From: Candidatus Woesearchaeota archaeon
Lineage (GTDB): Archaea; Nanobdellota; Nanobdellia; Woesearchaeales; JACPBV01
Direction: 5' to 3'
Length of the DNA: 64,000 bases
NCBI GenBank assembly: GCA_016180135.1
Contig: JACPBV010000007.1
Coordinates: 41,248 to 105,247 of the forward strand
Positions 14,426-57,574 of this stretch are shown here, piece by piece. Positions within the stretch are counted from its first letter, which is position 1. Each line of letters opens with the position of its first letter. The notes below the pieces were generated by a model. The model saw only the letters and a program-made list of their open reading frames with translations, had not been told where the DNA came from and did no database searches. The position numbers and the translations under genes were made by a program.

Positions 14426-15598
14426 TCATTTTGCCTCTCTTGCATTTTCTCTTTTCTTCAGCAGCACAGCGCAAAAGCACTGGAGCCCTTCACCTTTCCC
14501 CCAGGCAGTCAATTCCTCGCCGGAAGTTGCTGCGATGCCGACCTGCTCTTCATTTAGCAGGCAGAGCCTTGCAATATTTGCTTTGATCCTGCCCTCATAG
14601 CTGAAAAGCCTCGGTTTCTTCCCTTCAACCATCACTGCGATATTGCTGACTGCAAAGCCTTTTTCTTTAGCCATGCCGAGGGCAACCTCAAGATAGACCC
14701 TGCTGGTCTTTATTCCCTGTCTGCAAAGGGGGTCTGCATAGAAGCCCAGGCTTTTGCCGCCTACAGCAGTGCTTATGGCGTTGAACAATGCATGGAGGAT
14801 GACATCACCGTCGGAATTTGCCTCCAAGCCATTTTCATTGGGAATTTCAACCCCTCCAAGGATCAGCCTTTTTGGATTGATGTCAAACTTGTGGGAATCC
14901 TGGCCGAAACCGATGCGGTCAGCCTGGATGACAAGCCTTGCATTCTCCATGTCAATCGGATTTGTTATCTTGAAATTTTCCTTTGAGCATTCGATAAGCT
15001 TTACCTTGGCTCCAATCTTCTCAATCAGCTCCATGTCGTCTGTGCCATAATATTGCTCGTTGTAGGCATGCACCATCGCCTGAGTCATCAGATCAAATCT
15101 TGCTGCCTGCGGTGTCTGCATATGCCATAAGCGGTTCCGGTCAAGGGTCTTTATGACAAATCCTTTATCATCTGCCTCTTTGACAGTGTCTGCTGCCCTG
15201 AATCCTGCCGCAGCAGCCCCGCTCTCCCCTGCTGCCATGATGACCCTTCCGATGAGATTATCGTCGATGAATGGGTTTGCGCCGTTATGGATAAGGACAA
15301 TATCCGAAGGCTCTGCCTTTATTGCTTTGATGCCTTCATAGGCGCTGTCCTGCCTGTTCTCGCCCCCCTTGACAAGCCCAGTTACCTTTGAAAGCTGTTT
15401 TTTGTCGATAAGATACTGTATTTCCCCAAGATTTTCCTCATTTGCGACAATGGTGATGGTGTCAATGAAACTGGAATCCTCAAAAGCCTGCAGGGTGTGC
15501 CCAAGAAGAGGCTCTTTGTTCAGGAGCATCAGCAGCTTATTGATGGGGGAGTGCATCCGTGTCCCTTTCCCTGCCGCAAGGATGATGGCGTGGTTCAT
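14426..15598 (-). CDS. ispDF: bifunctional IspD/IspF (MEP cytidylyltransferase / MEcPP synthase)
   Basis: N-terminal ILAAGKGTRM nucleotidyltransferase motif (IspD); C-terminal RIGFGQDSHKF...GGVEIPNENGLEANSDGDVILHALFNAISTAVG is the IspF metal-binding signature. Confidence 0.85.
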   Translation of the reverse strand: MNHAIILAAGKGTRMHSPINKLLMLLNKEPLLGHTLQAFEDSSFIDTITIVANEENLGEIQYLIDKKQLSKVTGLVKGGENRQDSAYEGIKAIKAEPSDIVLIHNGANPFIDDNLIGRVIMAAGESGAAAAGFRAADTVKEADDKGFVIKTLDRNRLWHMQTPQAARFDLMTQAMVHAYNEQYYGTDDMELIEKIGAKVKLIECSKENFKITNPIDMENARLVIQADRIGFGQDSHKFDINPKRLILGGVEIPNENGLEANSDGDVILHALFNAISTAVGGKSLGFYADPLCRQGIKTSRVYLEVALGMAKEKGFAVSNIAVMVEGKKPRLFSYEGRIKANIARLCLLNEEQVGIAATSGEELTAWGKGEGLQCFCAVLLKKRENAREAK

Positions 15599-19690: not shown

Positions 19691-20633
19691 GTTGGGGGAG
19701 ATAATTGTGCTAAACCATAATTATGTTACGGTAGTATCTCTTTGGCGGTTTATGGAGGTACCATGGCATACACCAAAGAGTTTAAACTTAGGATTATAAA
19801 ACATGTGAGAATGGGAATAACCCCCATTGAGCATATAGCGACGATACGGAAAATTCCAAAGCAAACCATCTACCGGTGGCTTAAATCTATAAGGCGATAC
19901 GGTGAATCTGGGCTTGAAAATGGATGTCCTGGTGCTAAACCGTTTCAAATTAATGTGACAGCCCAGCAGATGATACTTGTCCGCTGGAAAAAGCGCCCAA
20001 GAGGCTCAGCAAAGCTCTGGAGGGAGCTTAAAGAAGAAGGTTTTGGGATCTCTCAGCGACAGATTCAAAAAGCCTACAACCAACACGGTCTTAGAATGAA
20101 CAAGCGAGAAAGGCCCTCTCAGCTGAAATTCGTAAAATACGAATGGCCAAAGCCCAATATGCTCTGGCATACTGACTGGACAATCTGCCCTTTCACCGGT
20201 AACCACCTGATAGCATTCATTGACGACAATAGCCGATACATCGTCCATGCTGAGCTGTTCAACAGCCCAACTACAGAAAACACGCTCCTGGCTTTTCGGG
20301 CCGCAATAGCAAAGCATGGAAAGCCAGAAGCCATCCTTACGGACAATGGAACACAATTCACGCCAGCACGAGCATCAAAAGGCCCGTTTTCCCAATGGTG
20401 TGAAGAGCAGGGGATAAGACATATTATTGGGCGAGTCAATCACCCCCAAACGAATGGAAAAATAGAAAGATGGTTTGGGACGTACAAACAGGAGAAAAAA
20501 CAAGAAGAGCCGCTTGATTCGTTCGTTAAGTACTATAATGACGAACGCTTACATCAGGGAATTAACTATAAAGTACCATCTGAGAGGTACAAAAGTAACA
20601 TTAATGCGGTTTAGTAGAGTTGGGGGAGATAAT
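19691..20633 (+). mobile_element. IS481-family insertion sequence with 15-bp flanking direct repeats GTTGGGGGAGATAAT
   Basis: Direct repeats at 19691-19705 and 20619-20633; imperfect terminal inverted repeats TGTGCTAAACCATAATTATGTT and AACATTAATGCGGTTTAGTAGAG; single transposase ORF inside. Confidence 0.7.
19763..20614 (+). CDS. IS481-family DDE transposase (HTH plus rve integrase core)
   Basis: GGAGGT SD upstream of ATG at 19763; HTDWT...FIDDNSRY...LTDNGTQF...NHPQTNGKIERWFGTYK is a DDE (D,D,35E) integrase core; the ORF-track start at 19742 is a TTG. Confidence 0.8.
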   Translation: MAYTKEFKLRIIKHVRMGITPIEHIATIRKIPKQTIYRWLKSIRRYGESGLENGCPGAKPFQINVTAQQMILVRWKKRPRGSAKLWRELKEEGFGISQRQIQKAYNQHGLRMNKRERPSQLKFVKYEWPKPNMLWHTDWTICPFTGNHLIAFIDDNSRYIVHAELFNSPTTENTLLAFRAAIAKHGKPEAILTDNGTQFTPARASKGPFSQWCEEQGIRHIIGRVNHPQTNGKIERWFGTYKQEKKQEEPLDSFVKYYNDERLHQGINYKVPSERYKSNINAV

Positions 20634-26439: not shown

Positions 26440-26482
26440 CTGACCCATTCCCCTTTGGGGCGGCCCCCTTGTCAGCTGGATT
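26440..26482. repeat. GC-hairpin repeat (family shared with 7218-7258)
   Basis: The reverse complement reads TCCAGCTGACAAGGGGGCCGCCCCAAAGGGGAATGGGTCAG, homologous to TCCAGCTGACAGGGGGGTCGCCCCAAACGGGGGATGTCAG. Confidence 0.5.
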
Positions 26483-26590
26483 CAAAGGGCAAATGATTTT
26501 TACTTTAGGCTTCTAACCTATATTTTTTGACGGAGCCCATAGCCTATAGTAAACTATTTAAAGGGCCGATTTACCCTCCGGACAGCAAAG

Positions 26591-26929
26591 ATGAACGAAA
26601 AAACTGATGATATCTCCCGTGTTTTACAGTCGGTAAGGTCTGCCGAATCAGAGGCAAAGCAGATTATCGAACAGGCACGGGAAAGAGGAAAGCAAATTGT
26701 TACGGATGGCCATGCTCATTTCTTAAGGCTGAAGGAACAGAAGATAGCAGAGTCCAGGCTAAAAACCGAAGAGAGAAAAAAGAATCTTCTCGACGGACTG
26801 AAGGGGGAGCATGATAAGATTATAAAAGCATCTGTCCAGGAAGCCCAAAAGCTTGAATCTTCCGCCCAAAAGCACATTTCCAGAGCAGTCAATAAAGTTC
26901 TTGAAACCTTTGAAGCTGATATGCCATGA
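26591..26929 (+). CDS. atpH: A-type ATP synthase subunit H
   Basis: 112-aa charged coiled-coil protein immediately upstream of atpI, overlapping by 4 nt; position and size typical of ahaH. Confidence 0.6.
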   Translation: MNEKTDDISRVLQSVRSAESEAKQIIEQARERGKQIVTDGHAHFLRLKEQKIAESRLKTEERKKNLLDGLKGEHDKIIKASVQEAQKLESSAQKHISRAVNKVLETFEADMP

Positions 26930-28911
26930 ACCGCCAAGAGACTCCTGAACCGATGGCAAAACTTGTTATGATTACTCCTGAGTCTAAGCTAAAGCCGGTG
27001 ATCAGGGCGCTTCACGCTCTTGGCGCATTGCACATCGAAGAGCATAAAAAATCTGAAACCATGGATATAGGCTCACCGATGAAAGAGTCCGAACAGATAT
27101 CTTCTTTATTGGTCAGGATACGGTCCCTCCAGTCATCTTTAGCGCTGAGCCTCAAACCCGGCAGGGATTTAGGAGGGGATTTTGGCAGGGAACAAAAAGC
27201 GGATTTACACCGGAATTTAGGAAGGAGTGATAAAATCCAATCTGCCAAACAATCAAGTTCCCAGCAGCCGGGAAAAGATGCTTTTTCAGCCTCAAGAATC
27301 AGAGAGATGGAATCTTTTTACGGAAAGCTTGATAAGCAGCTTTCTATCCTTCAAGCTGAGTCCGATACGCTTAAGCAGGCTGTTTCCCAGCTTTCACTTG
27401 AGCTGAAGAATCTCAAAGAGATCGATGCGCTCGGCATTGACATCCCGTTTTTCTCAGGATTTAGCTCTCTCTCCTCATTTGTTGGGACTGTGAAGGCTGC
27501 TGAAGGGCTGCCTGAAAAGCTCGCCGATGCTATCTCTCAAGTGACTGCTGACTTTTCTCTCAGAATTGCCAATCATGAGCAGCCTCTTGTCGCAGTTTTT
27601 GTGAGAAAAGATGCGGAGAGGGGCGTCGCAGGAATCCTTGCAGAATTTGATTTTAAACCAATGGCAGTCCCTGTCCTGGGAAAGGGGGAGACCTTAAAGC
27701 AGGCCATAAAGGACAAGGCCCGGGAATTGGATCTTGCACAAAAGGGAGTAAAAGAAACACTTCTTGAGATATCCCAAATCGCACACCGGCAAAGTAAAAG
27801 GATGCTTCAGGACGAGGCTGTATTATCGGCAGAGATTGAGCGGCAGGAAGCCCCGTTACGATTCGGCCGGACTGATTTTGCCTATGTGGTGACAGGCTGG
27901 ATTCCGGAAAAGGACTGTAAAAGCTCGATGAAGGAGATCAGGAAAGCAGCTGCCGGAAAAATATTTATCGAAGCTTCTGAGCCCGGGCATCACGACAAAG
28001 TTCCTGTGAAGCTCCATAACAGCCCGGGAACAAGGCCTTTTGAGTTCTTCCTCAACCTTTATTCTCTCCCCTCTTACGGGGAAAAGGATCCCACGAAAAT
28101 AATCTCTATCCTGTTTCCTATCCTTTTTGGCTTTATGCTCGGAGATGTCGGCTACGGGATTGTCACCCTTGCCCTTTCTTATTACCTGAAGAAAAAATTC
28201 GGAGACCAGCAGCTTTTTGGGATCATCAAATATGCCTCAATCTCATCAATCTTCTTCGGAATCCTCTTCGGCGAATATTTTGGCTTCGAGGAATTTGGGC
28301 ATTTTGAGTTCTGGCATATCCTCAGCAGAGCGCATGACCTTACTGAGCTTGGAATCATCGCAATAGCGATCGGCTTCGTCCACCTGAACATCGGCCTTGG
28401 GCTGGGATTTTCAAATGTGCTCAGGCATCATGGCTTAAAGATGGCAATCTTTGAAAAGGGAAGCTGGTGGGTGCTCCAGGCCGGAGCGGCATTGATCGGG
28501 CTTTATCTTGCGAAACTGCTTCCAACAATCAGCCTTTATGCCGGAATATCTCTTATCCTTGCTTTTGCTGTTATGATTGTCAAAGGCGAGGGAATTAAGG
28601 GCCTTGTTGAGATGCCTGCGATCTTCAGCAATATGCTGAGCTATGCGAGGCTTATGGCCATCGGAGTATCGTCTGTAGAGCTTGCTATCGTCATCAACGA
28701 GCAGTCATTGGAGATGTTCCATAAAGGGGCTGCTGGTGTTATCGGCGGAATCCTGGTTTTGCTTGTCGGCCATTCCATCAATCTTGGCCTCGGCCTTCTT
28801 GGCTCATTTTTGCATTCGTTGAGGCTGCATTACGTGGAATTTTTCAGCAAATTTTTTACTGGCGGCGGCATGCGATACCAGCCTTTTGGGAAAAAAGAGG
28901 GGAGTGATTAG
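26926..28911 (+). CDS. atpI: A-type ATP synthase subunit I (a-subunit)
   Basis: Soluble coiled-coil N-terminal half, then a C-terminal domain of about 7 TM helices with the conserved Arg region (NMLSYARLMAIGVSS). Confidence 0.85.
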   Translation: MNRQETPEPMAKLVMITPESKLKPVIRALHALGALHIEEHKKSETMDIGSPMKESEQISSLLVRIRSLQSSLALSLKPGRDLGGDFGREQKADLHRNLGRSDKIQSAKQSSSQQPGKDAFSASRIREMESFYGKLDKQLSILQAESDTLKQAVSQLSLELKNLKEIDALGIDIPFFSGFSSLSSFVGTVKAAEGLPEKLADAISQVTADFSLRIANHEQPLVAVFVRKDAERGVAGILAEFDFKPMAVPVLGKGETLKQAIKDKARELDLAQKGVKETLLEISQIAHRQSKRMLQDEAVLSAEIERQEAPLRFGRTDFAYVVTGWIPEKDCKSSMKEIRKAAAGKIFIEASEPGHHDKVPVKLHNSPGTRPFEFFLNLYSLPSYGEKDPTKIISILFPILFGFMLGDVGYGIVTLALSYYLKKKFGDQQLFGIIKYASISSIFFGILFGEYFGFEEFGHFEFWHILSRAHDLTELGIIAIAIGFVHLNIGLGLGFSNVLRHHGLKMAIFEKGSWWVLQAGAALIGLYLAKLLPTISLYAGISLILAFAVMIVKGEGIKGLVEMPAIFSNMLSYARLMAIGVSSVELAIVINEQSLEMFHKGAAGVIGGILVLLVGHSINLGLGLLGSFLHSLRLHYVEFFSKFFTGGGMRYQPFGKKEGSD

Positions 28912-29088
28912 CGCTCAAGGTTTTATCGTTCAGGCCGGATAGATGAGGATGATGTTTATTAATCCAAACAGCATAAAGAAAATCGATAGGAAGGATATAA
29001 AATAATAACCATAAATAAACAATAAATAAACAATAAATTAATAATAAACATACAATAAATAAACAAAACCAATTGGAGGGAAAAGAAT

Positions 29089-29313
29089 ATGGCAGAAATC
29101 GGAAGCGCAATCATAGCAACAAGCGCTGCAGTTGCTATCGCTACAAGCGCATTTGCAGCAGCATGGGCGGAATACAAGATAGGAACAGCGGCAATAGGGG
29201 CGATGGCAGAAAAGGAGGAACTGTTCGGCAAAGGTTTGATTTTGACCGTCATTCCGGAAACAATTGTCATCTTTGGCCTTGTTGTGGCAATCCTTATCCT
29301 CGGAAAAATTTAG
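29089..29313 (+). CDS. atpK: A-type ATP synthase proteolipid subunit K (c-subunit)
   Basis: 74-aa two-helix hairpin; GAMAEKEE loop; conserved Glu in helix 2 (IPETIVIFGLVV). Confidence 0.85.
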   Translation: MAEIGSAIIATSAAVAIATSAFAAAWAEYKIGTAAIGAMAEKEELFGKGLILTVIPETIVIFGLVVAILILGKI

Positions 29314-29340
29314 CCGGGATAAGCCTATCTTGCTGCCAAT

Positions 29341-29432
29341 ATAGCAAAAGACACGAACATTTAGACAATAAACATGTCTTTTGCTATTACGAACGGACAA
29401 CTACTGTTCAATTATTTTTGTCCGTAAGTATA
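29341..29432 (+). promoter_or_regulatory. conserved bipartite intergenic module, copy 3 (atpK-atpE intergenic)
   Basis: ATAGCAAAAGACAC...GTCTTTTGCT hairpin, then ATTACGAACGGACAACTACTGTTCAATTATTTTTGTCCGTAAGTAT; ends about 22 nt upstream of the atpE ATG. Confidence 0.45.
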
Positions 29433-29453
29433 GTCCATATTATTGGGGAGCCA

Positions 29454-30023
29454 ATGGGACTCGAGAACGTAAGGGTTGAGATCCTTGCATCCGCAAGGAA
29501 GGAAGCTGAAGCTGTCATCGCTAAAGCAAACGCTGAAGTCAGCGAGATCGCTAAGCGGGTGAAGCAGGAGATTGATGCTGAGAAGGAAAAAAGCGCAGCA
29601 AAGATGGATGCTGAGCTGAAACTGCTCAGGGAGAATGATCTCTCGAAGGCAAGGCTTGAGGCCCGCAAGACAGTCCTTCACATGAAGAGCCGCCTTATCG
29701 AAGAAGTATTTGCGAAGGCAAAGAAAGAGCTTGAGCATTCAGGAAAAGAAGCGAGGAAAAAGCACCTGGCATGGTTGTTATCAAAGGCAAAAGAGGAGAT
29801 GAGCATACGATATATTGAGCTGAACAGGCACGATATCGGGCTGCTCCAGAGCGGAGAGATGGGGGGGATTGAGGCAAAGGAATCAAAGATTATCGGAGGA
29901 TTGATCGCCCATAATGCCGAAGGCACCTTGTCCCTTGAACTGAGCTATGAAGCCTGCCTTGCTGACGTGAGGGAAAAATCCGTCGGGGATATTGCCGAAA
30001 TCCTGTTCGGCGGGGGGCGCTGA
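29454..30023 (+). CDS. atpE: A-type ATP synthase subunit E
   Basis: MGLENVRVEILASARKEAEAVIAKANAEVSEIAKRVKQEIDAEKEK...; about 190 aa coiled coil plus globular C-terminus in operon position; the ORF-track extension back to 29073 is not credible. Confidence 0.8.
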   Translation: MGLENVRVEILASARKEAEAVIAKANAEVSEIAKRVKQEIDAEKEKSAAKMDAELKLLRENDLSKARLEARKTVLHMKSRLIEEVFAKAKKELEHSGKEARKKHLAWLLSKAKEEMSIRYIELNRHDIGLLQSGEMGGIEAKESKIIGGLIAHNAEGTLSLELSYEACLADVREKSVGDIAEILFGGGR

Positions 30024-30024
30024 T

Positions 30025-31131
30025 ATGGCAAGCCGACTAAGAAAATTGTTTCAGTTCAGGAGGAGAGTAAGGCTTGGAGAGTTCCCCTATACCTATGTCA
30101 GAGTCAGCGTTATGCGCTCATCTCTATACAAGAAATCTGAATATGACAAGATCCTGAAAATGTCTTTCGGAGAAATCAGCAGATTCATGCAGGATTCCAC
30201 CTACAGCGAGGATGTGTCTGCATTTGGCGTGTCCACTTCCGGACTTGAGCTCATCGAAAAAGCCACAAACAGAAACCTTGTGCGGACCTTTGAAAAACTG
30301 AGAAGAATCTCCCCGCCTGAGCTGCAGAGCCTGATAGGACTTTATCTTGGAAGATTTGACACCTACAATCTCAAATCAATATTAAGAGGGATATACTCCG
30401 GAAAGCCGAAAGAGCAGGTTATGGAAGCTATGGTCTTCGCCGGCGCATTAAAAGAGGGAGATTTCAAAGGGATGCTTGATGCAGAAACAATTCCCGACGC
30501 TATCGCAGGGATGCCTAAGATGGAAAAAAGGCAAAAGGAGACCCTTGCAAAAGCATTCATGGAAAAAGGAAATCTCATCGAAGTTGAGAATTTTCTGGAC
30601 AAACTCTACTTTTCGCATGTCCTTGATTCGATAAGCCTGTTTTCCGGCCAGGGAAAGCTGTTCAGGGAATTTATGGCTGAAGAGATCGGCATCCTCAATA
30701 TGATGACGTTCTTAAAATTAAAGAAGAAAGGGCTTTCAAACAGAGAAATTAAGAATATGCTTGTTGACACCGAATCCATCCTCCAATCCAGCGGCAAAGC
30801 TTCATTACTTTTGGGGCATCTGCTCTCTACCCATTCAGACGAGGGTATCATCAATCTGCTGCAGCAGTCCGAATATGGCAGTTTTTTGACGCCTGAATCA
30901 ATCCAGGGGGGTAAAATATCAGATATCTCCCTGACTTCGCTTGAGGAGCAGCTTCATGCCTACCTCCTGCGGAAATCTATGCTGCTCCAGCACCAGAATC
31001 CCCTAAGTGTGGATGTCATCCTGGGATTTATGTTCGCTAAAGAGATGGAAGTGCGGAACCTGAGGCTGCTGGCAAAGGCAAAAGGGATGGGGCTTCCTGA
31101 AGAGAGGATTTTTAAGCATCTGGTGATGTAA
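30025..31131 (+). CDS. atpC: A-type ATP synthase subunit C (central-stalk d-subunit homolog)
   Basis: ATG 1 nt after the atpE stop; all-helical protein of about 370 aa in operon position. Confidence 0.8.
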   Translation: MASRLRKLFQFRRRVRLGEFPYTYVRVSVMRSSLYKKSEYDKILKMSFGEISRFMQDSTYSEDVSAFGVSTSGLELIEKATNRNLVRTFEKLRRISPPELQSLIGLYLGRFDTYNLKSILRGIYSGKPKEQVMEAMVFAGALKEGDFKGMLDAETIPDAIAGMPKMEKRQKETLAKAFMEKGNLIEVENFLDKLYFSHVLDSISLFSGQGKLFREFMAEEIGILNMMTFLKLKKKGLSNREIKNMLVDTESILQSSGKASLLLGHLLSTHSDEGIINLLQQSEYGSFLTPESIQGGKISDISLTSLEEQLHAYLLRKSMLLQHQNPLSVDVILGFMFAKEMEVRNLRLLAKAKGMGLPEERIFKHLVM

Positions 31132-31283
31132 CAATTACGGTGACCCTGGTAGGGATGATGGCAGTAATGATTGCATTGATAATAGCAGCGACGATGGAAG
31201 GAACATCAAATATGGCGGGAACATAAAATAGGGAAGGAACCTCCAAAAGGGAATGAACACCTAAAAGGGAATGAGCACCAAAA

Positions 31284-31691
31284 ATGGGAGGGACAGAAAT
31301 GGCAGGGACAGGAAGTGGGCAGGGCAATCGTGCTCCAGCTCATCAAATTGGCAAGAAAGGACAACAAGCGCAAACTTCACAATATCGATCTGGAGATTCA
31401 ATAGCGGTCTTCGGCACAAAGGAATTCAACCTGGGTTTTATGCTTGCCGGCATCAAAAAAGTTTTTAACTCGAGCGATGAGCCGGACAATGAGTTCAGGG
31501 CTTTGGCCTCAGACCATTCGATCAACATGGCAGTCATCGAAGATGATGTTGCAAGAAAGCTAAGCCCATTGCGCCGGAGGACAGTTGAAACATCCATCAA
31601 GCCAGTCTTTGTCACGCTGTCAAGATCCATGAGCGATGACGCACTGAAGCAGATGATCAAGCGCTCGATAGGAGTTGATCTGTGGAAATAA
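31284..31691 (+). CDS. atpF: A-type ATP synthase subunit F with low-complexity N-terminal extension
   Basis: Core SIAVFGTKEFNLGFMLAGIKKVF...AVIEDDVARKL matches subunit F; preceded by about 35 aa of Gly/Gln-rich sequence. Confidence 0.75.
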   Translation: MGGTEMAGTGSGQGNRAPAHQIGKKGQQAQTSQYRSGDSIAVFGTKEFNLGFMLAGIKKVFNSSDEPDNEFRALASDHSINMAVIEDDVARKLSPLRRRTVETSIKPVFVTLSRSMSDDALKQMIKRSIGVDLWK

Positions 31692-31730
31692 ACTGCCTAA
31701 TTAAAAAACTAGGGAGATATCATTCAAAAA

Positions 31731-31838
31731 AATTCAACAACATCGGCGAGGCGAGGTCGGGGGTCGCCCCATCGGGGTGACCGAGCAGGGCAAAATTTCT
31801 CAAAGAAATTTTGACCGTCGAGCCCGTTGTTGTTGAAT
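31731..31838. repeat. MITE-like palindromic element A (TIR AATTCAACAACA), atpF-atpA intergenic
   Basis: AATTCAACAACATCGGCGAGGCGAGGTCGGGGGTCGCCCCATCGGGGTGACCGAGCAGGGCAAAATTTCTCAAAGAAATTTTGACCGTCGAGCCCGTTGTTGTTGAATT; the sequence is self-complementary. Confidence 0.7.
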
Positions 31839-31888
31839 TTTTAAATCGGTAAAACTGCAGCTGGAAAATAAGTTTTATTTACAAAAGA

Positions 31889-33763
31889 TTGGATGGTGAG
31901 AATCTTATGAGCAAAGCAACGATCATTAAAGGAGAAGTAAACAAAGGAACAGCCAGCGATGGAACTTCCAGCGATGGAAATCCCGGCAATCGGGAAGACA
32001 GCAAAGGAACAATCTCCAAGCGAACAATAGGAAAAGGAACCATATTCAGGGTAGCAGGGCCGGTGATCGAGGCAAAGAACATTGACGCTAAGATGTATGA
32101 CGTTGTCATTGTCGGCAAGGAGAGGCTGATGGGCGAGGTCATCAGGATTCAGGAAGAGCTGACGACGATACAGGTCTATGAGGATACTTCAAACATCAAG
32201 CCCGGCGAAGATGTTGAAGTGACGGGGATGCCGCTGTCAGTCGAGCTTGGGCCCGGATTATTGTCAAGCATCTACGACGGGATACAGAGGCCGCTGCCTG
32301 TCCTTAGGGACCAGATGGGCGATTTCATCAAAAGAGGGGTTCAGGCGCCGGGGCTTGACCACAAAAAGAAATGGGAATTCAAGGCTGCTGCAAAGAAAGG
32401 CGATGAGGTGAAGGGGGGTGCTGTCATCGGGACTGTCGAGGAGATGCCGGGCATTGTGCACAAGATAATGGTTAAGCCGGACGTTCATGGGAAGATTGAG
32501 TCTATCAAAAGCGGCAGTTTTACTGTCGATGAAGCTGTCGGGGAACTGGAGGACGGCACAGAGCTGAAGCTCTTCCACCAGTGGCCGGTCAGGATACCGA
32601 GGCCTGTTGCAAAAAAGCTGATGCCGGAAACACCGCTTGTCACAGGGCAAAGGGTGATTGACGGATTATTCCCGGTAGCAAAAGGGGGCGTTGCTGCGAT
32701 CCCTGGGCCGTTCGGAGCAGGAAAAACGGTTTCCCAGCAACAATTGGCAAAATGGTCTGACGCTGACATCATCGTCTATATCGGCTGCGGCGAGCGTGGG
32801 AATGAGATGACAGAAGTCCTCACAGAATTTCCCCATCTTACCGACCCAAAATCGGGGAAGCCCCTGATGAACAGGACGGTGCTGATCGCCAATACCTCCA
32901 ATATGCCGGTCGCAGCCCGTGAGGCATCAGTCTATACGGGAATCACCATCGCAGAATATTTCAGGGATATGGGCTATGATGTTGCGCTGATGGCAGACTC
33001 CACTTCACGCTGGGCGGAAGCGATGAGGGAGATCTCGTCAAGGCTTGAGGAGATGCCCGGGGAAGAGGGGTATCCTGCCTATCTTTCGACAAGGCTTGCT
33101 GAATTTTACGAACGGGCAGGGCGAGTCATCCCTTTAGGAACTGACAAGGCCGGCTCAGTCACGGTCATCGGGGCAGTCAGCCCTCCCGGAGGAGATTTTT
33201 CAGAGCCGGTCACCCAGGGAACGCTGAGAGTAATCAAGACATTCTGGGCGCTTGATGCGAAGCTTGCACAGAGAAGGCATTTTCCGTCGATAAACTGGCT
33301 GACAAGCTATTCCCTCTATCAGGATACGCTCTCAGGATGGTTCAACAAAGAAATTGCGCCCGACTGGTCTGACAGGGTCAGGCAGATGAAGACGCTCCTG
33401 CAGGAAGAGGAAAAATTGCTGGAGATCGTCCAGCTTGTCGGCTCTGATGCGCTGCCGGAGAAGCAGCAAATCACGCTTGAGACTGCCCGGCTCATCAGGG
33501 AGTTTTTTCTCCAGCAGAACGCATACCATGAGGTGGATACTTACTGTGATTTAAAAAAGGCATACAGGACGATGGGATTGATACTCCAGTTTGGGCAAAA
33601 GGCGCAGGAGGCACTTGGCAAAGGCGCTGACATCCAGCGGATCCTTGGCATCAAGACAAAAGACAGGATCGGAGAAGTGAAGTTTGACAAGAACCATGAC
33701 GCTCTTCTCAATTTGCTTGAAGCCGAGATGAGGAAAGAGTTTGATGCGGTGGGGGCTGAATAA
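31889..33763 (+). CDS. atpA: A-type ATP synthase catalytic subunit A, with low-complexity N-terminal extension
   Basis: Walker [10 protein letters not shown]; GERGNEM; family-typical [14 protein letters not shown]-terminus, preceded by about 45 aa of KGT/SDG-repeat sequence. Confidence 0.95.
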
Positions 33764-33807
33764 GATGATAGGCTCTGAATCAATAAGCTCTGAATTGGCA
33801 GTTAAAA

Positions 33808-33918
33808 AATTCAACAACAACAATGGGCTCGACGGTCAAAATTTCTCAGAGAAATTTTGCCCTGCTCGGTCACCCCGATGGGGCAACCCCCGACCTCGCC
33901 TCGCCGATGTTGTTGAAT
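33808..33918. repeat. MITE-like palindromic element B, an inverted copy of element A downstream of atpA
   Basis: The reverse complement differs from 31731-31838 at only a few positions; elements A and B flank atpA in inverted orientation. Confidence 0.7.
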
Positions 33919-33964
33919 TTTCTGGATGTTCTTTTTCATATAAACGATGCGTAGGTGGTAACTT

Positions 33965-34098
33965 ATGAAGGCAGACTCACTGTCGTTCGCAGCCTTCATT
34001 TTGAAGGCAATGTTCAGGGAGGTAGTTCAAAATGAAAGCAGACTCACTGTCGTTCGTAGCCTTCATTTTGAAGGCAATGTTCAAGGAGGTAGTTCAAA
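33965..34098 (+). repeat. perfect-to-near-perfect tandem duplication (2 x 67 bp) of the atpB start region
   Basis: Each unit reads ATGAA(G/A)GCAGACTCACTGTCGTTCG(C/T)AGCCTTCATTTTGAAGGCAATGTTCA(G/A)GGAGGTAGTTCAAA; each carries its own SD plus ATG and a TGAAGGC...GCCTTCA hairpin; this creates upstream ORFs of 45 and 26 codons ending at or overlapping the atpB ATG. Confidence 0.8.
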
Positions 34099-35598
34099 AT
34101 GAAAGAGTATAAAACAATCACGAGAATTGAAGGGCCGCTGGTTTTTGTGGCTAAGACTGAGCCTATCGGGTATGGGGAGATCGCTAAGATACGGCTGCCT
34201 AATGGGGAGATCAAGAATGGGCAGGTCCTTGATACTTCTGATGACATCGTTGTTGTCCAGGTGTTTGAAGGCACTCGGGGGATTGACAAGAACGCAACTA
34301 TCAAATTTCTTGGGGATACAATCAAGCTGGCAGTCAGCGAAGATATGCTTGGGAGGATCCTGGACGGGAAGGGGGAGCCTCTTGACAACGGGCCTTCTAT
34401 CATCCCTGAAAAGAAGATGGAGATCATCGGCGCAGCAATCAATCCTTACGCAAGGGACAGCCCGGGGGATTTCATCCAGACAGGGATTTCGACGATCGAT
34501 GCGATGAACACGCTGGTCAGGGGGCAGAAGCTGCCGATTTTTTCCGGCTCGGGGCTGCCGCACAATGAGATTGCGCTCCAGATAGCGAGGCAGGCAAAAG
34601 TGCTTGGCATGAAGGAGAAGTTTGTCGTTGTCTTTGCAGCGATGGGGATCACCAATGAGGAAGCCCAGCATTTCATCAGGGATTTTGAGCAGACAGGGGC
34701 TATCGAGAGGAGCGTCGTGTTTTTGAATCTTGCAGATGACCCCGCTGTCGAAAGGCTGATCACGCCAAGGATGGCGCTTACAACGGCAGAATACTTTGCC
34801 TACGACAAAGACATGCACGTCCTTGTCATCCTGACAGACCTTACCAATTACTGCGAGTCACTGAGGGAGATAGGCTCTGCCCGTGAGGAGATTCCGGGAA
34901 GGAGAGGGTATCCCGGCTATATGTATACTGACCTTGCGACTATCTATGAGCGGGCAGGGATCATCAAAGGGAGGAAAGGCTCAATCACCCAATTCCCCAT
35001 CCTCACCATGGTCGGGGATGATATCACTCATCCTATCGCTGACCTCACCGGCTATATCACTGAAGGGCAGATTGTGCTGAGCAGGGAGCTGCATACCAAA
35101 GGATTCTATCCTCCTGTTGATGTGCTTCCTTCGCTTTCCAGGCTGATGAATCTTGGTATCGGAAAGCAAAAGACCAGAGAAGACCATAAGCAGGTTTCTG
35201 ACCAATGCTATGCCGGCTATGCTGAAGGGCGTGACTTGCGAGGGCTTGTCGCTATCGTCGGTGAAGATGCGCTTTCTGATAAGGACAAAAGGCTGCTGAA
35301 GTTTGCTGAAGCGTTCGAGAAAGAATTTGTGACCCAGGGAAAGCACGAAGACAGAGATATTTCCAGAACCCTTGACCTTGCCTGGGAGCTGCTGGGGATG
35401 CTGCACAAGGAAGACCTCACAAGGATTTCACCTGAGCTGAAGAATAAATATTACAAAGCGCGATGGCTGGACGCTCCCTTAAGTGAGGAATCAAAAGAAG
35501 CGGGCAAAAAGGAAGCTGTTGGGAAGGAAGAATCCAGGACAAAAGTCTCTGTAAGGAAGCCTTTGCAGGGGATGGATGAAGAAGATACCAAAGAGTGA
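34099..35598 (+). CDS. atpB: A-type ATP synthase regulatory subunit B, with charged C-terminal extension
   Basis: Collinear with archaeal AtpB ([19 protein letters not shown]; [22 protein letters not shown]); about 40 extra C-terminal residues are rich in K/E. Confidence 0.95.
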
Positions 35599-35734
35599 TA
35601 AAATATAGGCCGTAAAAAAGGGAAAAATAAAAGGAAAATAACATCATTAATAAAAGGAAAATAACATCATTAAGAATGGATAAATGCCCTAAAGTTAGGG
35701 GTTATACAAGACTCAGACTGCATTTCATAAACGC

Positions 35735-35853
35735 CCAACAACAAAAATGGGCTCAAACACGGTCGTGCTCCGCACGCCCTACTCACAAAGGATTTTCCCG
35801 AACTTCGTAGCGGGAAAATCCTCTGCATTCGAGTTTTCGGCCATTGTTGTTGG
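35735..35853. repeat. MITE-like palindromic element C (related TIR CCCAACAACAAAAATGGGCTC ... GGCCATTGTTGTTGGG)
   Basis: Shares the CAACAACA terminal inverted repeat and adjacent ATGGGCTC with elements A and B; internal perfect hairpin GGATTTTCCCG...CGGGAAAATCC. Confidence 0.6.
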
Positions 35854-35874
35854 GCTGAATGTTTAAAGCGGTTT

Positions 35875-35920
35875 GAATGCAACCATTCCATCAGGTCTTT
35901 GACCGTGGTGGTCGGATTTT
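35875..35920. repeat. 'AATGCAACCATTCC' repeat family, truncated copy
   Basis: GAATGCAACCATTCCATCAGGTCTTTGACCGT matches 5313 and 56625. Confidence 0.6.
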
Positions 35921-36051
35921 TATTGAAAGTTTAAATCTGTGTGAACATTAATGTCATACCATCAAGGCCACACCCTCAGGGCCATACCATTAAGTCCATA
36001 CCATTAACGCCATACCTTTAACTGATGCAACACAACCTCATAAACTAACTC

Positions 36052-36774
36052 ATGTCGCAGAATATCAAGCCTACAAGAAGCGAACTTATCCAGCTTAAGA
36101 GAAAGATAAAGCTTGCCCAGTCAGGCTATAAGCTGCTGAAGAAAAAACGGGAAGGGCTTATCTTTGAGTTCTTTAATGTCATGAAGAAGGCTAAGACTTT
36201 GAGAAGCGATCTGCTGAATGCCTATCTTCCGGCGCTTGATGCGCTGCAGACAGCACGCCTTATGGAGTCTGACCTTGCCATCGAATCTATTGCGATGGCT
36301 GTCTCTTCAGCGCCGGGAATTTCGCTCAAGACCAAAAATATCCTTGGTGTCAAGGTTCCGCAGGTTGAGGCAGGGGATATGAAGAAACAGTATCTCGAGA
36401 GGGGATTTGGCATCATGACTTCTGCTTCTGTCGATGAGGCTGCTGCGCAGTATGAGAAAGTCATTGAAGCAGCGTTGAAGGTTGCTGAGATAGAAACCAC
36501 GATGAAGAAGCTTCTCAAGGAGATTGAAAAGACCAAAAGGAGAGTGAATGCTTTAGAGTTTGTCGTCATTCCCAGGATGATGAAGCAGCAGCAGTTCATC
36601 CGGCTGCGGCTTGAGGAGATGGAGCGAGAGAATACCTTCAGGATGAAGAGGATAAAGAAGAAGGATACTGGGGATGGAGCGGAACAAGGGGAGTTTGGGA
36701 ATGCCAAAGACTGGTTTGGTGCTGCCAAAGGGATACCTCCTTTGGAGAAGGTAGAAAAGATTGATATTTATTGA
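36052..36774 (+). CDS. atpD: A-type ATP synthase subunit D (central stalk)
   Basis: MSQNIKPTRSELIQLKRKIKLAQSGYKLLKKKREGL...; coiled-coil protein of about 240 aa at the operon end. Confidence 0.9.
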   Translation: MSQNIKPTRSELIQLKRKIKLAQSGYKLLKKKREGLIFEFFNVMKKAKTLRSDLLNAYLPALDALQTARLMESDLAIESIAMAVSSAPGISLKTKNILGVKVPQVEAGDMKKQYLERGFGIMTSASVDEAAAQYEKVIEAALKVAEIETTMKKLLKEIEKTKRRVNALEFVVIPRMMKQQQFIRLRLEEMERENTFRMKRIKKKDTGDGAEQGEFGNAKDWFGAAKGIPPLEKVEKIDIY

Positions 36775-37036: not shown

Positions 37037-39892
37037 TTAACTCATCGAAAGGTTAGTATCATCCAAGGAATAAACCCAATAACCCCACCCGGCGGTAAAG
37101 TTCTGAAGCCTGTTCATCGACGCATCTCTTCCCTTGACATAGGAGAACCAATCACCCCAACGGAAGGAATAGACTCTGGTGATTGGCGCTGAAACCATCG
37201 TTTCGTTGATACCTATGCTTTTTCCTGAGGGGTAACCGATAAGATTCCATCCCCGCTGGAGCTCTATTCCCTGGGATGTGTTAAAAGGAATTCCAGCAAT
37301 CGTCGAATTCATGTCCCTGATCCCATAGGCCCACAGCGCCATTGAGGTATTCACTTCCGAGTCAGGTGAAAGGTTTAGCCAGTGACCGTCTTTAAATGTA
37401 AGGACGGGCTTAATTGGGTCCATTGAGAGCCTGCTGCCGATGCGCCTCACCGTTGCAGGATTGAACCAAGAAGGAAATGAAACGAGGCTCCAGCCTTTGC
37501 TGATGAACATTTGGCAGTCATCTCCAAGGCCATTATTATCGGAATCAGGCTGGCCAGGATTATAAACCTCCGGGCAGTTGTCTGCAAGCCTCGGGAGGAA
37601 ATCCTTATCTAAATCCTGGAATTCCGAAACATTGATGGAAAGGACTGCCGAGCCATTTCCGCCAAGAATATCTATACGCTCAGCATCTATGAAATAAGGC
37701 AGGGTTATTGCGTCTTCTGTGAAGTTTACAGAGGCAAAATCTGATTCATTGGGAACAATAACCTGGGAATCATTCTGATCAAAAAATGAGCGGGGAGGGC
37801 TGAAGACTGGCTCAAGTGCGAGAGAAAAGTTTAATGAATAAAGAGTATCGTTAAGGGAGGAGAAGACAACTGCTCGGTAGGAGGAATTTTCATCATCAAT
37901 ATTTTCTGCCCTCCCCGATGCAAGTGAGACGTTCCTGACAGAAAGATTTCCTTCTTCAAAAATAATTTCAGCCACAAAGCTCAGGTTATATTCTGGGCTG
38001 CTTTCCTCAAATATCCCGAAAAAATTTTTTAGGGAAGCATTGATATCCTTTTCCAGCTCTATCCTGTGGACCTCGCCAAATTCTGCATCGGGCCGATAGG
38101 AGTTCCTCATCAATGAATTTTTATAGGGCCTATACCAGTTGCTATAGAAGCACTCGCTGCTGCAGGTGATGCCGGCCAGGGAAGCCCATTTGGGGCAGCC
38201 TGAAATATCGCAGTTGGGAACCTTGCCCGGATTTTTTGGATTTGCTCCGGCATTTTTGTATTCATCCATCAGTCCACCGAAGGAATGCCCGAACTCATGC
38301 ACCAATGTCCTTACAACCTCGAATTTGTTATCTCCTGCATTGGCGCAATCAAAAAATATTCCTCCATCTCCACGGCAGTTTCCGGGGTCCTGCCCGTCCT
38401 GCGGCCTTGCGATGTCCAGCGGAAATTCGCACATGCCGAGGTATTCGCATCCCGCAACGATGAAAGCCTCTTTTTTTCCGATACCTGAGTATGGCTTGAT
38501 ATAAGCATGAGGCCAGAATCTCGGCTCAAATGAAAGAAAGACCAGCTGATCCCACTGAGGGCAGGCTGATTTTCCCAGTTTCCTTGCCTGCTGCTCATAC
38601 TTTTCGAGGGTAAACGCCGGCAGGGAATTTACGGCCCAAAAATTAAACTTGCCCTTATTTTCTTTAAAAGGGCTGACTGACATAAGGCCGCCAAGGGAAC
38701 CATTGTAATCAACAAAATCGGCTGCAGTCTGAAACCATGAGCTGATATTGGGAAATCCGCTTCCTACAAATACAACATCAATCTTATCCCTGCTTCTCCC
38801 GTTGATGGTGAGCCCATTGCATATCGGGCAACCTTTCTTGCAGATCCATCCGCAGTCAATGCCCTCTTCGAAGCCGTTCTGGAACCCGTCATTGCAGCTT
38901 ACTGTAGCGCAAACGCCGTTGCTGCAGAACTTCCCTTTGCAGCCTGTGTTGGATGCGCATTTCTTTCCGTCGGGGCATGGGCCGCACACTCCTCCGCAAT
39001 CAACATCACTTTCTAAGCTGTCTTTAATACCATTATCGCACGACCCAATATCTTTCCTCAGCCAGGGGTCAAAATTCACTTTCCCTTTGGCGCCCAAGGA
39101 CTCTTCATCGTCATAGATGGCCTGCTCGATATATTCCCCTGAGTTAGTTCCCCAGAAGTTGTTGATGGCGGTGACCTGCGCCTTTGCATTGTTGAAAAGC
39201 CCAAAGGTTGTGCTGGAGGTGATTGAATTCTGAGAAATTATATTTGTCCCATTATCAACATAAATCCCAACTGAATTCCCCTGGAGAAAGTTGTCAGAAA
39301 AAGTATTTCCATAGGAACCCTGGCCCAAATGGGCGCCTCTAGTGTTGTTCCAGAAGCTATTCCTGAGGAGAGTATTGAATAATGAGCCACTTTCAACAAG
39401 GATGCCTCTCGAGTTGTTTGAAATGTTGTTGTTGATAATTTTATTGCCATCACTATCAAAAAGATTAATCCCGTAGCCGACATTGTTCTTGAATTCATTA
39501 TCATTCAGTGTGTTGTTGTTAAGATACTTAAGGGTAATCCCGTCTGCACCATTATTCAGGCCCTTATTTGAAGCAAATGAGCCGTTTCTCGCACGAAAAA
39601 TATAGCCCTGCGCCGCATTATTCCTTGAGATGGTATTCCTGATAATCGGCCTATCTGCAAGAAGCCCAAGGGATGTATCACTTGTAACGGCAATTCCATT
39701 TGAATAATTCTCAACAATGCAGTTCTTAATGAGTATATCATCATCATAAGAGCTTACAATCCCATAGCCTATCCGTTTTCCAACAAGGACTGTATCATCG
39801 CAGTCCAGCACAACCCCATGCGCATCAATCTCGATGCCGCCTGAAAGCTTATATGTTCCCGGGCAGAGCGTCGTGTTTTCGATGACAACCAT
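37037..39892 (-). CDS. beta-helix / Cys-rich / M64-like metallopeptidase surface protein, C-terminal major fragment (951 aa) of a disrupted paralog
   Basis: Parallel beta-helix repeats; Cys-rich CGGVCGPC...GCKGKFCSNGVC module; HEFGHSFGGLMDEYK zinc-peptidase motif; TSP3-like DNCPEVYNPGQPDSDNNGLGDDC; conserved C-terminal KGWSL...GWNLIGYP...FTAGWGYWV; no signal peptide of its own. Confidence 0.7.
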   Translation of the reverse strand: MVVIENTTLCPGTYKLSGGIEIDAHGVVLDCDDTVLVGKRIGYGIVSSYDDDILIKNCIVENYSNGIAVTSDTSLGLLADRPIIRNTISRNNAAQGYIFRARNGSFASNKGLNNGADGITLKYLNNNTLNDNEFKNNVGYGINLFDSDGNKIINNNISNNSRGILVESGSLFNTLLRNSFWNNTRGAHLGQGSYGNTFSDNFLQGNSVGIYVDNGTNIISQNSITSSTTFGLFNNAKAQVTAINNFWGTNSGEYIEQAIYDDEESLGAKGKVNFDPWLRKDIGSCDNGIKDSLESDVDCGGVCGPCPDGKKCASNTGCKGKFCSNGVCATVSCNDGFQNGFEEGIDCGWICKKGCPICNGLTINGRSRDKIDVVFVGSGFPNISSWFQTAADFVDYNGSLGGLMSVSPFKENKGKFNFWAVNSLPAFTLEKYEQQARKLGKSACPQWDQLVFLSFEPRFWPHAYIKPYSGIGKKEAFIVAGCEYLGMCEFPLDIARPQDGQDPGNCRGDGGIFFDCANAGDNKFEVVRTLVHEFGHSFGGLMDEYKNAGANPKNPGKVPNCDISGCPKWASLAGITCSSECFYSNWYRPYKNSLMRNSYRPDAEFGEVHRIELEKDINASLKNFFGIFEESSPEYNLSFVAEIIFEEGNLSVRNVSLASGRAENIDDENSSYRAVVFSSLNDTLYSLNFSLALEPVFSPPRSFFDQNDSQVIVPNESDFASVNFTEDAITLPYFIDAERIDILGGNGSAVLSINVSEFQDLDKDFLPRLADNCPEVYNPGQPDSDNNGLGDDCQMFISKGWSLVSFPSWFNPATVRRIGSRLSMDPIKPVLTFKDGHWLNLSPDSEVNTSMALWAYGIRDMNSTIAGIPFNTSQGIELQRGWNLIGYPSGKSIGINETMVSAPITRVYSFRWGDWFSYVKGRDASMNRLQNFTAGWGYWVYSLDDTNLSMS

Positions 39893-40488
39893 GCCTTGGA
39901 GTTGGTGTAGGAGACAGAAGAATCCTGGATGTCATTGTCCCAGATGTCATTAAAGCTTGCGGTGTCGAGGGAGATGCTGTTCTGGGAGTTGTTGTCTATA
40001 AGGTTTTTTGTTACGGCATTCCCGCTGCTCTGGTCTATGAGTATTCCGCTTTCGCCGTTCCCCACAAACTCATTGCCAACAAGAGTGTTGTTTCTCAGGT
40101 ATTTCAGCAAAATCCCATTTCTGCCGTTGTTTACTGCTTTGCTGCCTGTCACCGTGCCGTTGATGGTCCAGAGCTCAAACCCATTGCCTGCATTGCCCCT
40201 GGAAATAGTATTGCTGATTGTGGGGCGATCTGAAAAGATGCCAAACACCGTGTCACTTTCCATCACAATACCGTCAGAATAGTTCTCGATAATGCAGTCC
40301 CTTATAACGACATCATCATTAAACTGGCTCTGTATGCCGTCATTCAGCCTTGTCCCCCTGAGCGTTGATCCATCGCAGTCCAGCACAACCCCATGCGCAT
40401 CAATCTCGATGCCGCCTGAAAGCTTATATGTTCCCGGGCAGAGCGTCGTGTTTTCGATGACAACCATGCTCATTGTCCCAGATGTCAT
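39769..40488 (-). CDS. beta-helix repeat fragment (239 aa), middle piece of the disrupted paralog
   Basis: N-terminus MSMVVIENTTLCPGTYKLSGGIEIDAHGVVLDCD is near-identical to the N-terminus of the 951-aa ORF; ends with the NNSQNSISLDTASFNDIWDN junction cassette; overlaps both neighbours in different frames. Confidence 0.5.
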   Translation of the reverse strand: MTSGTMSMVVIENTTLCPGTYKLSGGIEIDAHGVVLDCDGSTLRGTRLNDGIQSQFNDDVVIRDCIIENYSDGIVMESDTVFGIFSDRPTISNTISRGNAGNGFELWTINGTVTGSKAVNNGRNGILLKYLRNNTLVGNEFVGNGESGILIDQSSGNAVTKNLIDNNSQNSISLDTASFNDIWDNDIQDSSVSYTNSKAWLSSKTRRSAREHISFQAASRLMRMGLCWTAMIQSLLENG

Positions 40489-41095
40489 TAAAGCTTGCGG
40501 TGTCGAGGGAGATGCTGTTCTGGGAGTTGTTCCTTATGGCGTTCCCTGTAATGATATTACCGCCAGCAGATTGGAGATCTATACCATTGCCACGGTTATT
40601 TGCGATGGTATTGCCCCGAACTGAATTATTGCCCCTGTCTATAATCAAGATACCACCGGCATTATTAAGAACAGAATTTCGCTGTATCGTGCTGTTGAGG
40701 GCCTCAAGGTAAATTCCGGCTGAGGATTGGTTCCTGATTATTGAGTCCTGAACAATAATCTTTGATGAGGCGGTAAACCTCGCTCCGGTTGAAAAGCTTT
40801 CAATGATGCAGTTTTTGAGAGTGATGCCTGACAGGCTGTTTCCAACAATCCCATTTCCAGAACCTTTCCCGGAAATCTTAAAGTCATTGCAGTCAAGCGT
40901 CAGAAAATTCCTTCCGATAGTGAAACAGGTGGATGTTCCAAAAAGACCCGAGCCCAGAGTGTAGTTTGTGATTAAGGTATCGCCGCAGGCGCATGTTTTA
41001 ATGCCATTGCCGCAATTTGCGGCATAGGTAAAGCCTGAAGATATCACTACAACAATAATAACAGATAATATCAAGATTATTTTCGTAATATGCAT
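40424..41095 (-). CDS. signal-peptide plus beta-helix fragment (223 aa), 5' piece of the disrupted paralog
   Basis: N-terminal signal peptide/TM MHITKIILILSVIIVVVISSGFTYA; beta-helix repeats; ends in the same ISLDTASFNDIWDN cassette, then a frame change. Confidence 0.5.
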   Translation of the reverse strand: MHITKIILILSVIIVVVISSGFTYAANCGNGIKTCACGDTLITNYTLGSGLFGTSTCFTIGRNFLTLDCNDFKISGKGSGNGIVGNSLSGITLKNCIIESFSTGARFTASSKIIVQDSIIRNQSSAGIYLEALNSTIQRNSVLNNAGGILIIDRGNNSVRGNTIANNRGNGIDLQSAGGNIITGNAIRNNSQNSISLDTASFNDIWDNEHGCHRKHDALPGNI

Positions 41096-56572: not shown

Positions 56573-56624
56573 CTTTGAACTCCTGACTTTAATGAGTTTC
56601 TCTGATCAGGCAGATTCTAATTAA

Positions 56625-57428: not shown

Positions 57429-57574
57429 AACACCTTCTGCAGGAAATGGGTTTAAATACTTTACTTCTTTTGTAAGTTAACGATTGCATAATACGATAAT
57501 CTAGAAACAATGTTTATCTCTCAAACCCCTATACTAGAAACCATCATCACTTATTAAACAATTACTCATTAAAC

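Follow-up and report, generated by a model that had tools for sequence, protein, structure and literature searches.

Several kinds of small palindromic repeats described in bacteria and archaea resemble the elements that are the subject of this work, a family of sequences found on both sides of the atpA gene in the A/V-type ATPase operon of a 64-kb stretch of Candidatus Woesearchaeota DNA (from here on, the window). The MITEs (miniature inverted-repeat transposable elements) of prokaryotes, archaeal ones included, are small, non-coding and intergenic, with perfect terminal inverted repeats of 12-15 bp; they occur in multiple dispersed copies, with relatives that have element-free spacers, and they form subfamilies with common ends and different interiors. 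All these features recur in the present family, the last of them in copy 3 of the window and the element of contig L004, which differ in this way from copies 1 and 2. The attC sites of integrons are structured, strand-specific palindromes of 60-140 nt, and the elements of the window are similar to them, e.g., to the 123-126-bp VCRs, in length and in their strand-specific folding. According to a census of MITEs, a Woesearchaea genome is one of those with the highest density in Archaea (PMC11602168). Integrons have been reported in archaea, as have attC clusters that lack an integrase, Nanoarchaeota included (PMC9668308).

Other systems are comparable for their position inside operons. The ERIC (or IRU) sequences of enterobacteria, imperfect palindromes of ~127 bp, are similar in size to the window elements and, like them, are found in transcribed operon spacers in either orientation. 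Their core is conserved across genera, their longer variants arise by internal insertion and their hairpin is kept by compensatory changes, features to which those of the present family can be likened. The Correia elements of Neisseria and the RUP and BOX elements of Streptococcus measure 100-150 bp and share with it the terminal inverted repeats, the landing in operons and the co-transcribed hairpins, which in those bacteria can alter mRNA processing or termination. The REP/REPIN sequences with their RAYT tyrosine transposases are alike in that target-site duplications are absent, paired changes keep the structure, and G.T pairs are present on one strand, suggesting a single-stranded substrate (PMC3116915, PMC3733652). 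In the REPIN/RAYT and attC systems the enzyme reads one folded strand (PMC3116915; PMC3733652; PMC9668308).

The best reading of the atp elements is that they form a previously undescribed family of this known kind, i.e., small palindromic mobile intergenic repeats, which would work most like ERIC- or Correia-type repeats inside operons, and whose single-strand signature appears to resemble that of REPINs. They are probably non-autonomous, structure-dependent mobile repeats that occupy tolerant operon spacers, and not a programmed switch for the inversion of atpA. To our knowledge, families of small palindromic mobile repeats are barely described in DPANN archaea, and we know of no demonstration of RAYTs in these archaea. 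Members of this group with small genomes are generally assumed to offer selfish DNA little space; the single essential operon studied here holds at least three copies of one repeat family plus copies of three others.

The inverted pair on either side of atpA

The + strand of the window carries the ATPase operon, whose genes were assigned by Pfam, and in it atpA (31907-33763), which encodes the A/V-type ATPase catalytic subunit A of 618 aa, lies between copies 1 and 2; its product matches in full a protein recorded at NCBI for a Candidatus Woesearchaeota archaeon. An earlier note on this DNA had described a near-identical, inverted palindromic pair around the gene, and a repeat search confirmed it, with inverted arms at 31724-31835 and 33815-33926 that are 112 nt long, 95% complementary and 1979 nt apart. 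Both elements are present as that note had it, although their sizes, given there as 108 and 111 bp, had to be corrected: with the A/T extension of the terminal stem included, the best boundaries are 31728-31842 for copy 1 (115 nt; atpF-atpA spacer; forward strand of the element on the + strand) and 33805-33922 for copy 2 (118 nt; atpA-atpB spacer; forward strand on the - strand). Both are assigned to subfamily A, and the covariance model described below scores them at 112.6 and 122.8 bits, respectively. The pair was also said to bracket atpA exactly; it does flank the gene, but 64 nt separate the end of copy 1 from the ATG, and 41 nt separate the stop codon from the start of copy 2.

Copies 1 and 2 differ by three substitutions and one 3-nt indel, and their 95% identity fits the recent transposition that had been proposed, or else local hopping. 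They end in perfect terminal inverted repeats of 14-15 bp, AAAA(A)TTCAACAACA / TGTTGTTGAATTTT(T). The terminal motif AATTCAACAACA occurs exactly four times (31731, 31828, 33808 and 33908) and once more with one mismatch; five matches at no more than one mismatch compare with ~0.5 expected, and none of 100 shuffles got to five. Folding each element, as had been suggested earlier, gave in both a long hairpin with a three-way junction (z-scores of -4.7 to -6.4 versus shuffles). In copy 1 the arms of the terminal stem are 31728-31742 and 31828-31842, hairpin 1 (31762-31782) consists of GGTCGCCCC-ATC-GGGGTGACC within a G5-N3-C4-N3-G4 module, and hairpin 2 (31791-31813) is the palindrome CAAAATTTCT...AGAAATTTTG, all of them on the + strand. 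The equivalent hairpins 1 and 2 of copy 2 fold from 33868-33888 and 33837-33859 of the - strand, the second being again the internal palindrome, for which the number of occurrences expected by chance is 0.00. Open reading frames (ORFs) run across the elements on both strands and none is contained within an element, the window elements being 115-123 nt long. On the sense strand, a U5 run directly follows copy 1 and a U4 run directly follows copy 2.

The independent Logan assembly of run SRR4343430 has identical sequences, and its contigs stop inside both elements, as assemblers usually do at a true repeat. Inverted repeats such as these, which break short-read assemblies, can also mimic switch-like geometry, and in this case the geometry had led to the proposal of an invertible or excisable atpA segment, in which the inverted pair would be the substrate of programmed or frequent recombination. 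Geometry is what speaks for this proposal, given that homologous recombination is physically possible between 112-nt, 95% complementary arms that are 2 kb apart. Nevertheless, no invertase, integrase or tyrosine/serine recombinase was found among the 61 ORFs of the 64-kb window scanned with Pfam; the segment would be a whole essential gene, with no promoter logic; and atpA keeps its operon orientation in all seven Woesearchaeota operons examined. Moreover, three consecutive spacers of the operon (F-A, A-B and B-D) hold members of the family, and other repeat families are found in atp spacers as well; therefore, the bracket around atpA is not special but incidental. For these reasons the switch is unsupported and is judged extremely improbable here.

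A family of nine folded copies

A BLAST search within the window revealed no members beyond copies 1 and 2. On the other hand, a covariance model made from six family members and run on the window with filters off detected a third, diverged copy at 35733-35855 (17.8 bits), in the atpB-atpD spacer and with its forward strand on the - strand; the elements are thus not the two-copy arrangement that had been described. Copy 3, assigned to subfamily B, has the same ends as copies 1 and 2 (GCCCAACAACAATGGC...GAGCCCATTTTTGTTGTTGGGC) and a different interior, with hairpin 1 at 35785-35826 and hairpin 2 at 35764-35776 of the - strand, and it aligns lengthwise with the element of L004, both belonging to one subtype. 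The hairpin sequences are entirely different between copies in one genome.

In the closest relative (L006, GCA_016188175.1; AtpA 84% identical) the atpF-atpA spacer (117 nt) and the atpA-atpB spacer (137 nt) are free of the element, and a clear copy (137 bits) lies at 11139-11244, between atpD and proS. A member is also found in the atpB-atpD spacer of L097 (GCA_016219835.1; AtpA 75% identical; 35 bits), and the four other sampled operons (L096, L099, L100 and L101) are without the family or returned no DNA.

In other contexts, a scan of genome contigs for the terminal inverted repeats and the gap between them gave contig L004 (CAZTWQ010000004.1) as the only true member, with the element in the dxr-ispD spacer of a methylerythritol phosphate (MEP) pathway operon; two Flavobacterium matches to the same pattern were discarded, as they had no similarity beyond the pattern itself. 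The L004 contig (4500-8000) is labelled as a metagenome-assembled genome of Methanosarcinales, yet its GC content is 34% and its MEP operon, with the order dxs-ispG-dxr-[element]-ispD, is of bacterial type; IspD/IspF are encoded in the Woesearchaeota window too (14426-15598). The contig may be a mis-binned DPANN sequence, hence no claim is made of a spread across phyla. A scan of metagenome contigs with a 21-nt core pattern gave three true copies (L007, L008 and L011, from metagenome Ga0209541) and three chance matches, and the ORFs that flank the true copies differ from contig to contig. L008 (1146-1304) and L011 (903-1059) have in common a nested 53-nt palindrome, AAAAACTTTTTGGTC...GACCTAAAAGTTTTT, inserted where the terminal stem has its tandem G.A loop. 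All three members are embedded in a longer outer palindrome, which in L008 and L011 is GGTTAAGTC...GACTTAACC, and this composite appears to spread as one unit. Viral contigs, scanned three times, held no family members.

In all, nine copies from about six lineages are known (three in the window and one each in L004, L006, L007, L008, L011 and L097). They are non-coding and palindromic and measure ~105-160 nt. From the pattern of presence and absence and the variety of contexts it follows that the family is mobile, and the MITE-like character given to the pair in the earlier note was borne out: the closest relative has no element at either atpA spacer and a copy at another site, and other copies stand in unrelated contexts.

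The nine copies, without exception, fold as a three-way junction. The shared architecture comprises a terminal stem of 12-20 bp around CARCARCA/TGYTGYTG, a stem extension with a tandem G.A internal loop, and two hairpins at the junction. In the closest copies the junction reads GGCGAGGCGAGGTC / ..GAGYAGGGC.. / GACCGTCGAGCCC and the two hairpins vary; three junction blocks, GGCGAGGCGAGGTCGGGGG, GGGGTGACCGAGCAGGGCAAA and TTTGACCGTC, are invariant in the six closest copies. Another likeness to REP/REPIN sequences is that some copies have a tag similar to GTAG immediately 5' of hairpin 2. Its forms are GTAG, ATAG and GCAG, with GTAG in copy 3 and L097 and GCAG in copies 1 and 2. The six closest copies were aligned by hand, with N for gaps, because MAFFT misaligned the 3' stem and RNAalifold on the nine copies told little. 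In this alignment standard pairs fill 92% of the pair cells, versus 32-48% when the partners are slid by one to three columns, and 0/500 shuffles match the observed covariation score. Both sides have changed at nine pairs, some of them in the outer part of the terminal stem (TT/AA, CC/GG, GG/CC) and the others in the stem of hairpin 2; in L097, CAGCAGCA/TGCTGCTG replaces CAACAACA/TGTTGTTG. The forward strand folds more stably than its complement in all nine copies, by 1.8 to 11.9 kcal/mol, the fold energies of the elements being -44 to -60 kcal/mol; two G.U pairs do not vary among the six aligned copies, several others occur sporadically, and every one of them is on the forward strand.

Such features would also be expected if each copy were an independent small RNA gene, i.e., a structured RNA of ~115 nt expressed from its own promoter on the forward strand, in whichever spacer it lies. 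The covariation, the three invariant blocks and the G.U pairs on one strand only agree with this idea, as do the TATA-like AT-rich boxes upstream of several copies and the T runs downstream of the window copies. However, the boxes upstream of the forward strand are at inconsistent distances and L097 has none, so that a promoter of their own is not supported. Furthermore, presence and absence differ among close relatives, the core of L008 and L011 is interrupted by the nested insertion, and the hairpins of one genome differ completely, as described above. Rfam 15 gave no match to the elements at E<=1 in 31000-34600, and no match reached the gathering score in the window, L004, L006, L007, L008 or L011. 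All this makes small RNA genes quite improbable. A search with ARAGORN found no tRNA. The 5S rRNA, the hammerhead and twister ribozymes and a bulge-helix-bulge intron were considered as well and rejected, with no Rfam matches and no such motifs visible.

A relationship to integron attC sites deserves consideration on account of the element ends, which fit the R-box consensus RYYYAAC...GTTRRRY in five of the nine copies (window copies 1-3, L004 and L006; ATTCAAC/GTTGAAT, ACCCAAC/GTTGGGT, GCCCAAC/GTTGGGC), and of the strand-specific folding. In contrast, the ends of L007, L008, L011 and L097 are off consensus, and the terminal stem is continuous over 15 bp, with no unpaired spacer like that of attC. 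Neither an array nor, in the window, an IntI integrase was found; the copies have mixed orientations, and the genes that they flank are vertically inherited core operon genes and not cassettes. It is thus very improbable that the elements are attC-like recombination sites.

Mobilization and possible effects on the operon

Several observations weigh against the reading of the family as structure-dependent mobile repeats in tolerant spacers. No target-site duplication is consistent across the flanks of the nine copies, a TTGG repeat being present in L006 only, and the 64-kb window yielded no autonomous partner. The sole transposase there is IS481-like and its ends are unrelated: the insertion sequence (19706-20620) has imperfect terminal repeats with ends TGTGCTAAACC, its transposase gene (19742-20614) encodes 290 aa with helix-turn-helix and rve domains, and it is flanked by an unusually long direct repeat of 12-13 bp, TGGGGGAGATAAT. 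In addition, the family varies in its outermost bases (AAATT, AAACC, GCC, AGG, ACGG) and has an invariant interior in its closest copies, which is the reverse of a classical MITE mobilized by a transposase that acts on terminal inverted repeats. The covariation and strand statistics are suggestive, and thin, since they come from nine copies of about six lineages. Finally, in 174 kb of Woesearchaeota sequence with atpA at the centre, all five copies are in or at the edge of atp operons, which could be a hint of a local role rather than of neutrality. As compared with MITEs, then, the family differs in the lack of a consistent target-site duplication and of a partner insertion sequence in the window, in outermost bases that vary and co-vary, in junction blocks that are invariant in the six closest copies, and in one strand that folds better.

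The known systems differ from the family in other respects too. ERIC/IRU sequences have no sequence relationship to it, their hosts are not DPANN archaea, and they form a simple hairpin rather than a three-way junction. REP/REPIN sequences form inverted doublets, whereas the two hairpins of the present elements are not inverted copies of each other; the long terminal stem is a further difference, and the Pfam scan of 61 window ORFs revealed no Y1 (IS200/IS605-type) transposase. Correia elements have a TA target duplication and defined promoter and IHF sites, none of which are seen in the atp elements.

The elements have been demonstrated to be mobile and structured, and they lie in spacers that would be co-transcribed if a single transcript covered the operon. 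A probable course of events is that copies 1 and 2 are recent insertions, independent or locally hopped, which came to lie in opposite orientation by chance, and that the family is mobilised in trans, by an enzyme whose gene lies elsewhere in the genome. This enzyme probably reads one folded strand (single-stranded DNA or RNA) and not double-stranded terminal repeats, because conservation extends to the pairing and the junction sequence but not to the outermost bases, and because the G.T wobbles are on one strand. The family is a clean example of a mobile repeat in which the structure is conserved rather than the terminal sequence, and such a repeat points to a single-stranded transposition substrate in archaea. 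A bolder proposal is that it represents a new class of DPANN elements, defined by a fold on one strand, a junction core, co-varying stems and no target duplication, which would move through a folded single-stranded intermediate, prefer operon spacers and perhaps have been recruited for the expression of ATPase subunits; as a whole, this proposal seems unlikely to us.

Regarding the operon, the elements would act as passive co-transcribed hairpins, causing at most partial termination, or yielding stabilised or marked processing sites in segments of the polycistronic mRNA. The mRNA hairpin of copy 1 or 2 is predicted at -44 to -55 kcal/mol and would be followed by U5 (copy 1) or U4 (copy 2), so that the earlier suggestion of terminator or processing hairpins is plausible. 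Both copies could pair with each other across atpA, although local folding during transcription should win. Effects on the mRNA would most likely be neutral or mild, i.e., partial termination or protection of 3' ends.

A stronger role is proposed if these hairpins, mobile in origin, have been exapted and now serve the ATPase operon as 3' stabilisers, processing sites or partial terminators. They could raise the output of atpA and atpB, whose products are present in three copies per complex, relative to their neighbours, or they could terminate transcription in part and make atpA a separately expressed unit. This idea draws on the very stable folds of -44 to -60 kcal/mol, on the U5 and U4 runs directly after copies 1 and 2, and on the location of elements just 3' of atpF, atpA and atpB. 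Position is a further argument, given that 5/5 copies in the sampled Woesearchaeota atp loci are in or beside operon spacers. About 15% of the window is non-coding, and the three occupied spacers, their elements excluded, account for ~7% of that part, so that the presence of 3/3 window copies in them has a p of ~3e-4, post hoc, versus uniform placement in non-coding DNA. The ERIC elements are a precedent for orientation-independent hairpin effects on mRNA. The REP elements are another (PMC3733652). Against exaptation, the operon of the closest relative and 4/6 other sampled operons work without elements at these sites, and orientations are mixed: two of the five Woesearchaeota copies are sense and three antisense (in the window the order is +, -, -), which also speaks against a cis-regulatory RNA of a sequence-specific type. 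The same spacers are shared by different subfamilies and by repeat families unrelated to them, an indication of tolerance rather than selection. Exaptation is rather unlikely in our judgement, and the simplest causes of the clustering in atp spacers are local hopping and the tolerance of operon spacers that are free of promoters. If the enrichment in ATPase spacers were true genome-wide, the family would be a case in which the shaping of expression stoichiometry by mobile hairpins, within an operon in archaea, can be tested.

Neighbouring genes and other repeats

The remaining genes of the operon, likewise on the + strand, are atpI (26926-28911), atpE (inside 29073-30023), atpC (29992-31131), atpF (31284-31691, a listed ORF start that may be too far upstream), atpB (34099-35598, between copies 2 and 3) and atpD (36052-36774). 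An ORF of 74 aa at 29089-29313 occupies the position that atpK has in the relatives, and it is 94% identical over 47 aligned residues to the Pfam-annotated AtpK of L006. AtpA, AtpB and AtpD are each 83-84% identical to their L006 counterparts, and this equal divergence indicates that atpA was not captured or replaced separately; on these grounds the capture of atpA by a composite transposon, or its separate acquisition, was ruled out. AtpA has an N-terminal low-complexity extension of ~40 residues (31907-32040; residues ~8-45), rich in G, T, S, D and K. Most AtpA relatives, of 574-580 aa, are without it, and the Pfam N-terminal barrel begins at residue 46.

Directly upstream of atpB there is a leader unit of ~62-68 nt, which in the window is present as two tandem copies (33965-34098, 96% identical); two units are found in L006 (8466-8601), the first of them beginning 1 nt after the atpA stop, one each in L096, L097 and L099, and none in L100 and L101. 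The unit starts with ATGAAAGC, mimicking the atpB start ATGAAAGAG, contains GCYTYCAT, complementary to the region of this start, and has the atpB ribosome-binding site and ATG at its end. It encodes an upstream ORF of 20-23 codons, usually ending in an ATGA overlap with the atpB start; in the window this ORF has 45 codons because the period is 67. Judging from its sequence, the unit may be a translational-coupling or anti-start regulatory leader, or may encode a micro-protein. The sequence on either side of copy 2 (33764-33807 plus 33923-33964, ~86 nt) starts with GATGATAGGCTC and ends with GGTGGTAACTTATG, and looks like a third, degenerate leader unit that may have been split by the element. 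Greatly expanded spacers are found in other Woesearchaeota ATPase operons, namely an AT-rich F-A spacer of 325 nt in L099 (9676-10000) and a GC-rich K-E spacer of 377 nt in L097 (5605-5981), neither of which holds this family.

Three other repeat families occupy atp spacers, upstream of atpI, between atpK and atpE, and between atpB and atpD. The first, a second palindromic family with the form GGCTCCGTTCAAA...TTTGAACGGAGCC, has copies at 7162-7324 and 26450-26526 that are 90% identical over 77 nt, the latter immediately upstream of atpI; at its apex is GGGGGGTCGCCCCAAACGGGGG, a module almost identical to hairpin 1 of the atpA elements. Another family, TTGAATGCAACCATTCCATC.GGTCTTTGA.CG..., is found at 5311-5374, 35873-35936 and 56621-56684, and its truncated atpB-atpD copy adjoins element copy 3. 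The fourth repeat (7386-7448, 14281-14343 and 29370-29432, the last between atpK and atpE) measures ~63-100 nt, has internal inverted repeats and ends in the TATA-like TTTTTGTCCGTAAATATA; a promoter module and a further mobile repeat are both possible readings of it. The pattern GGGGG-N3-CCCC-N3-GGGG occurs at 4 loci (7229, 26450, 31759 and 33873) versus 0.13 expected. Similarly, GAGCGAAGCGAG is found at 3 loci (5349, 7298 and 56659) versus 0.01 expected, and contains GCGAAGC, known as a very stable mini-hairpin. In L006 the apex of hairpin 2 is GAGCGTAGCGAG. The occurrence of common hairpin modules in otherwise unrelated repeat families suggests, at the level of sequence, a modular superfamily or a common recognition hairpin.

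Two further repeats lie outside the operon. A large non-coding gap contains a palindromic element of ~190 nt (57554-57744), with 58-nt arms that are 76% complementary and an GGGGGGATGCCCCC apex. Two adjacent genes for beta-helix/NosD surface proteins share direct repeats at their 5' ends, the first of 99 nt with 100% identity (39796-39894 / 40371-40469) and the next of 94 nt with 85% identity (39932-40025 / 40470-40563), which reflect either a recent partial duplication or an assembly collapse.

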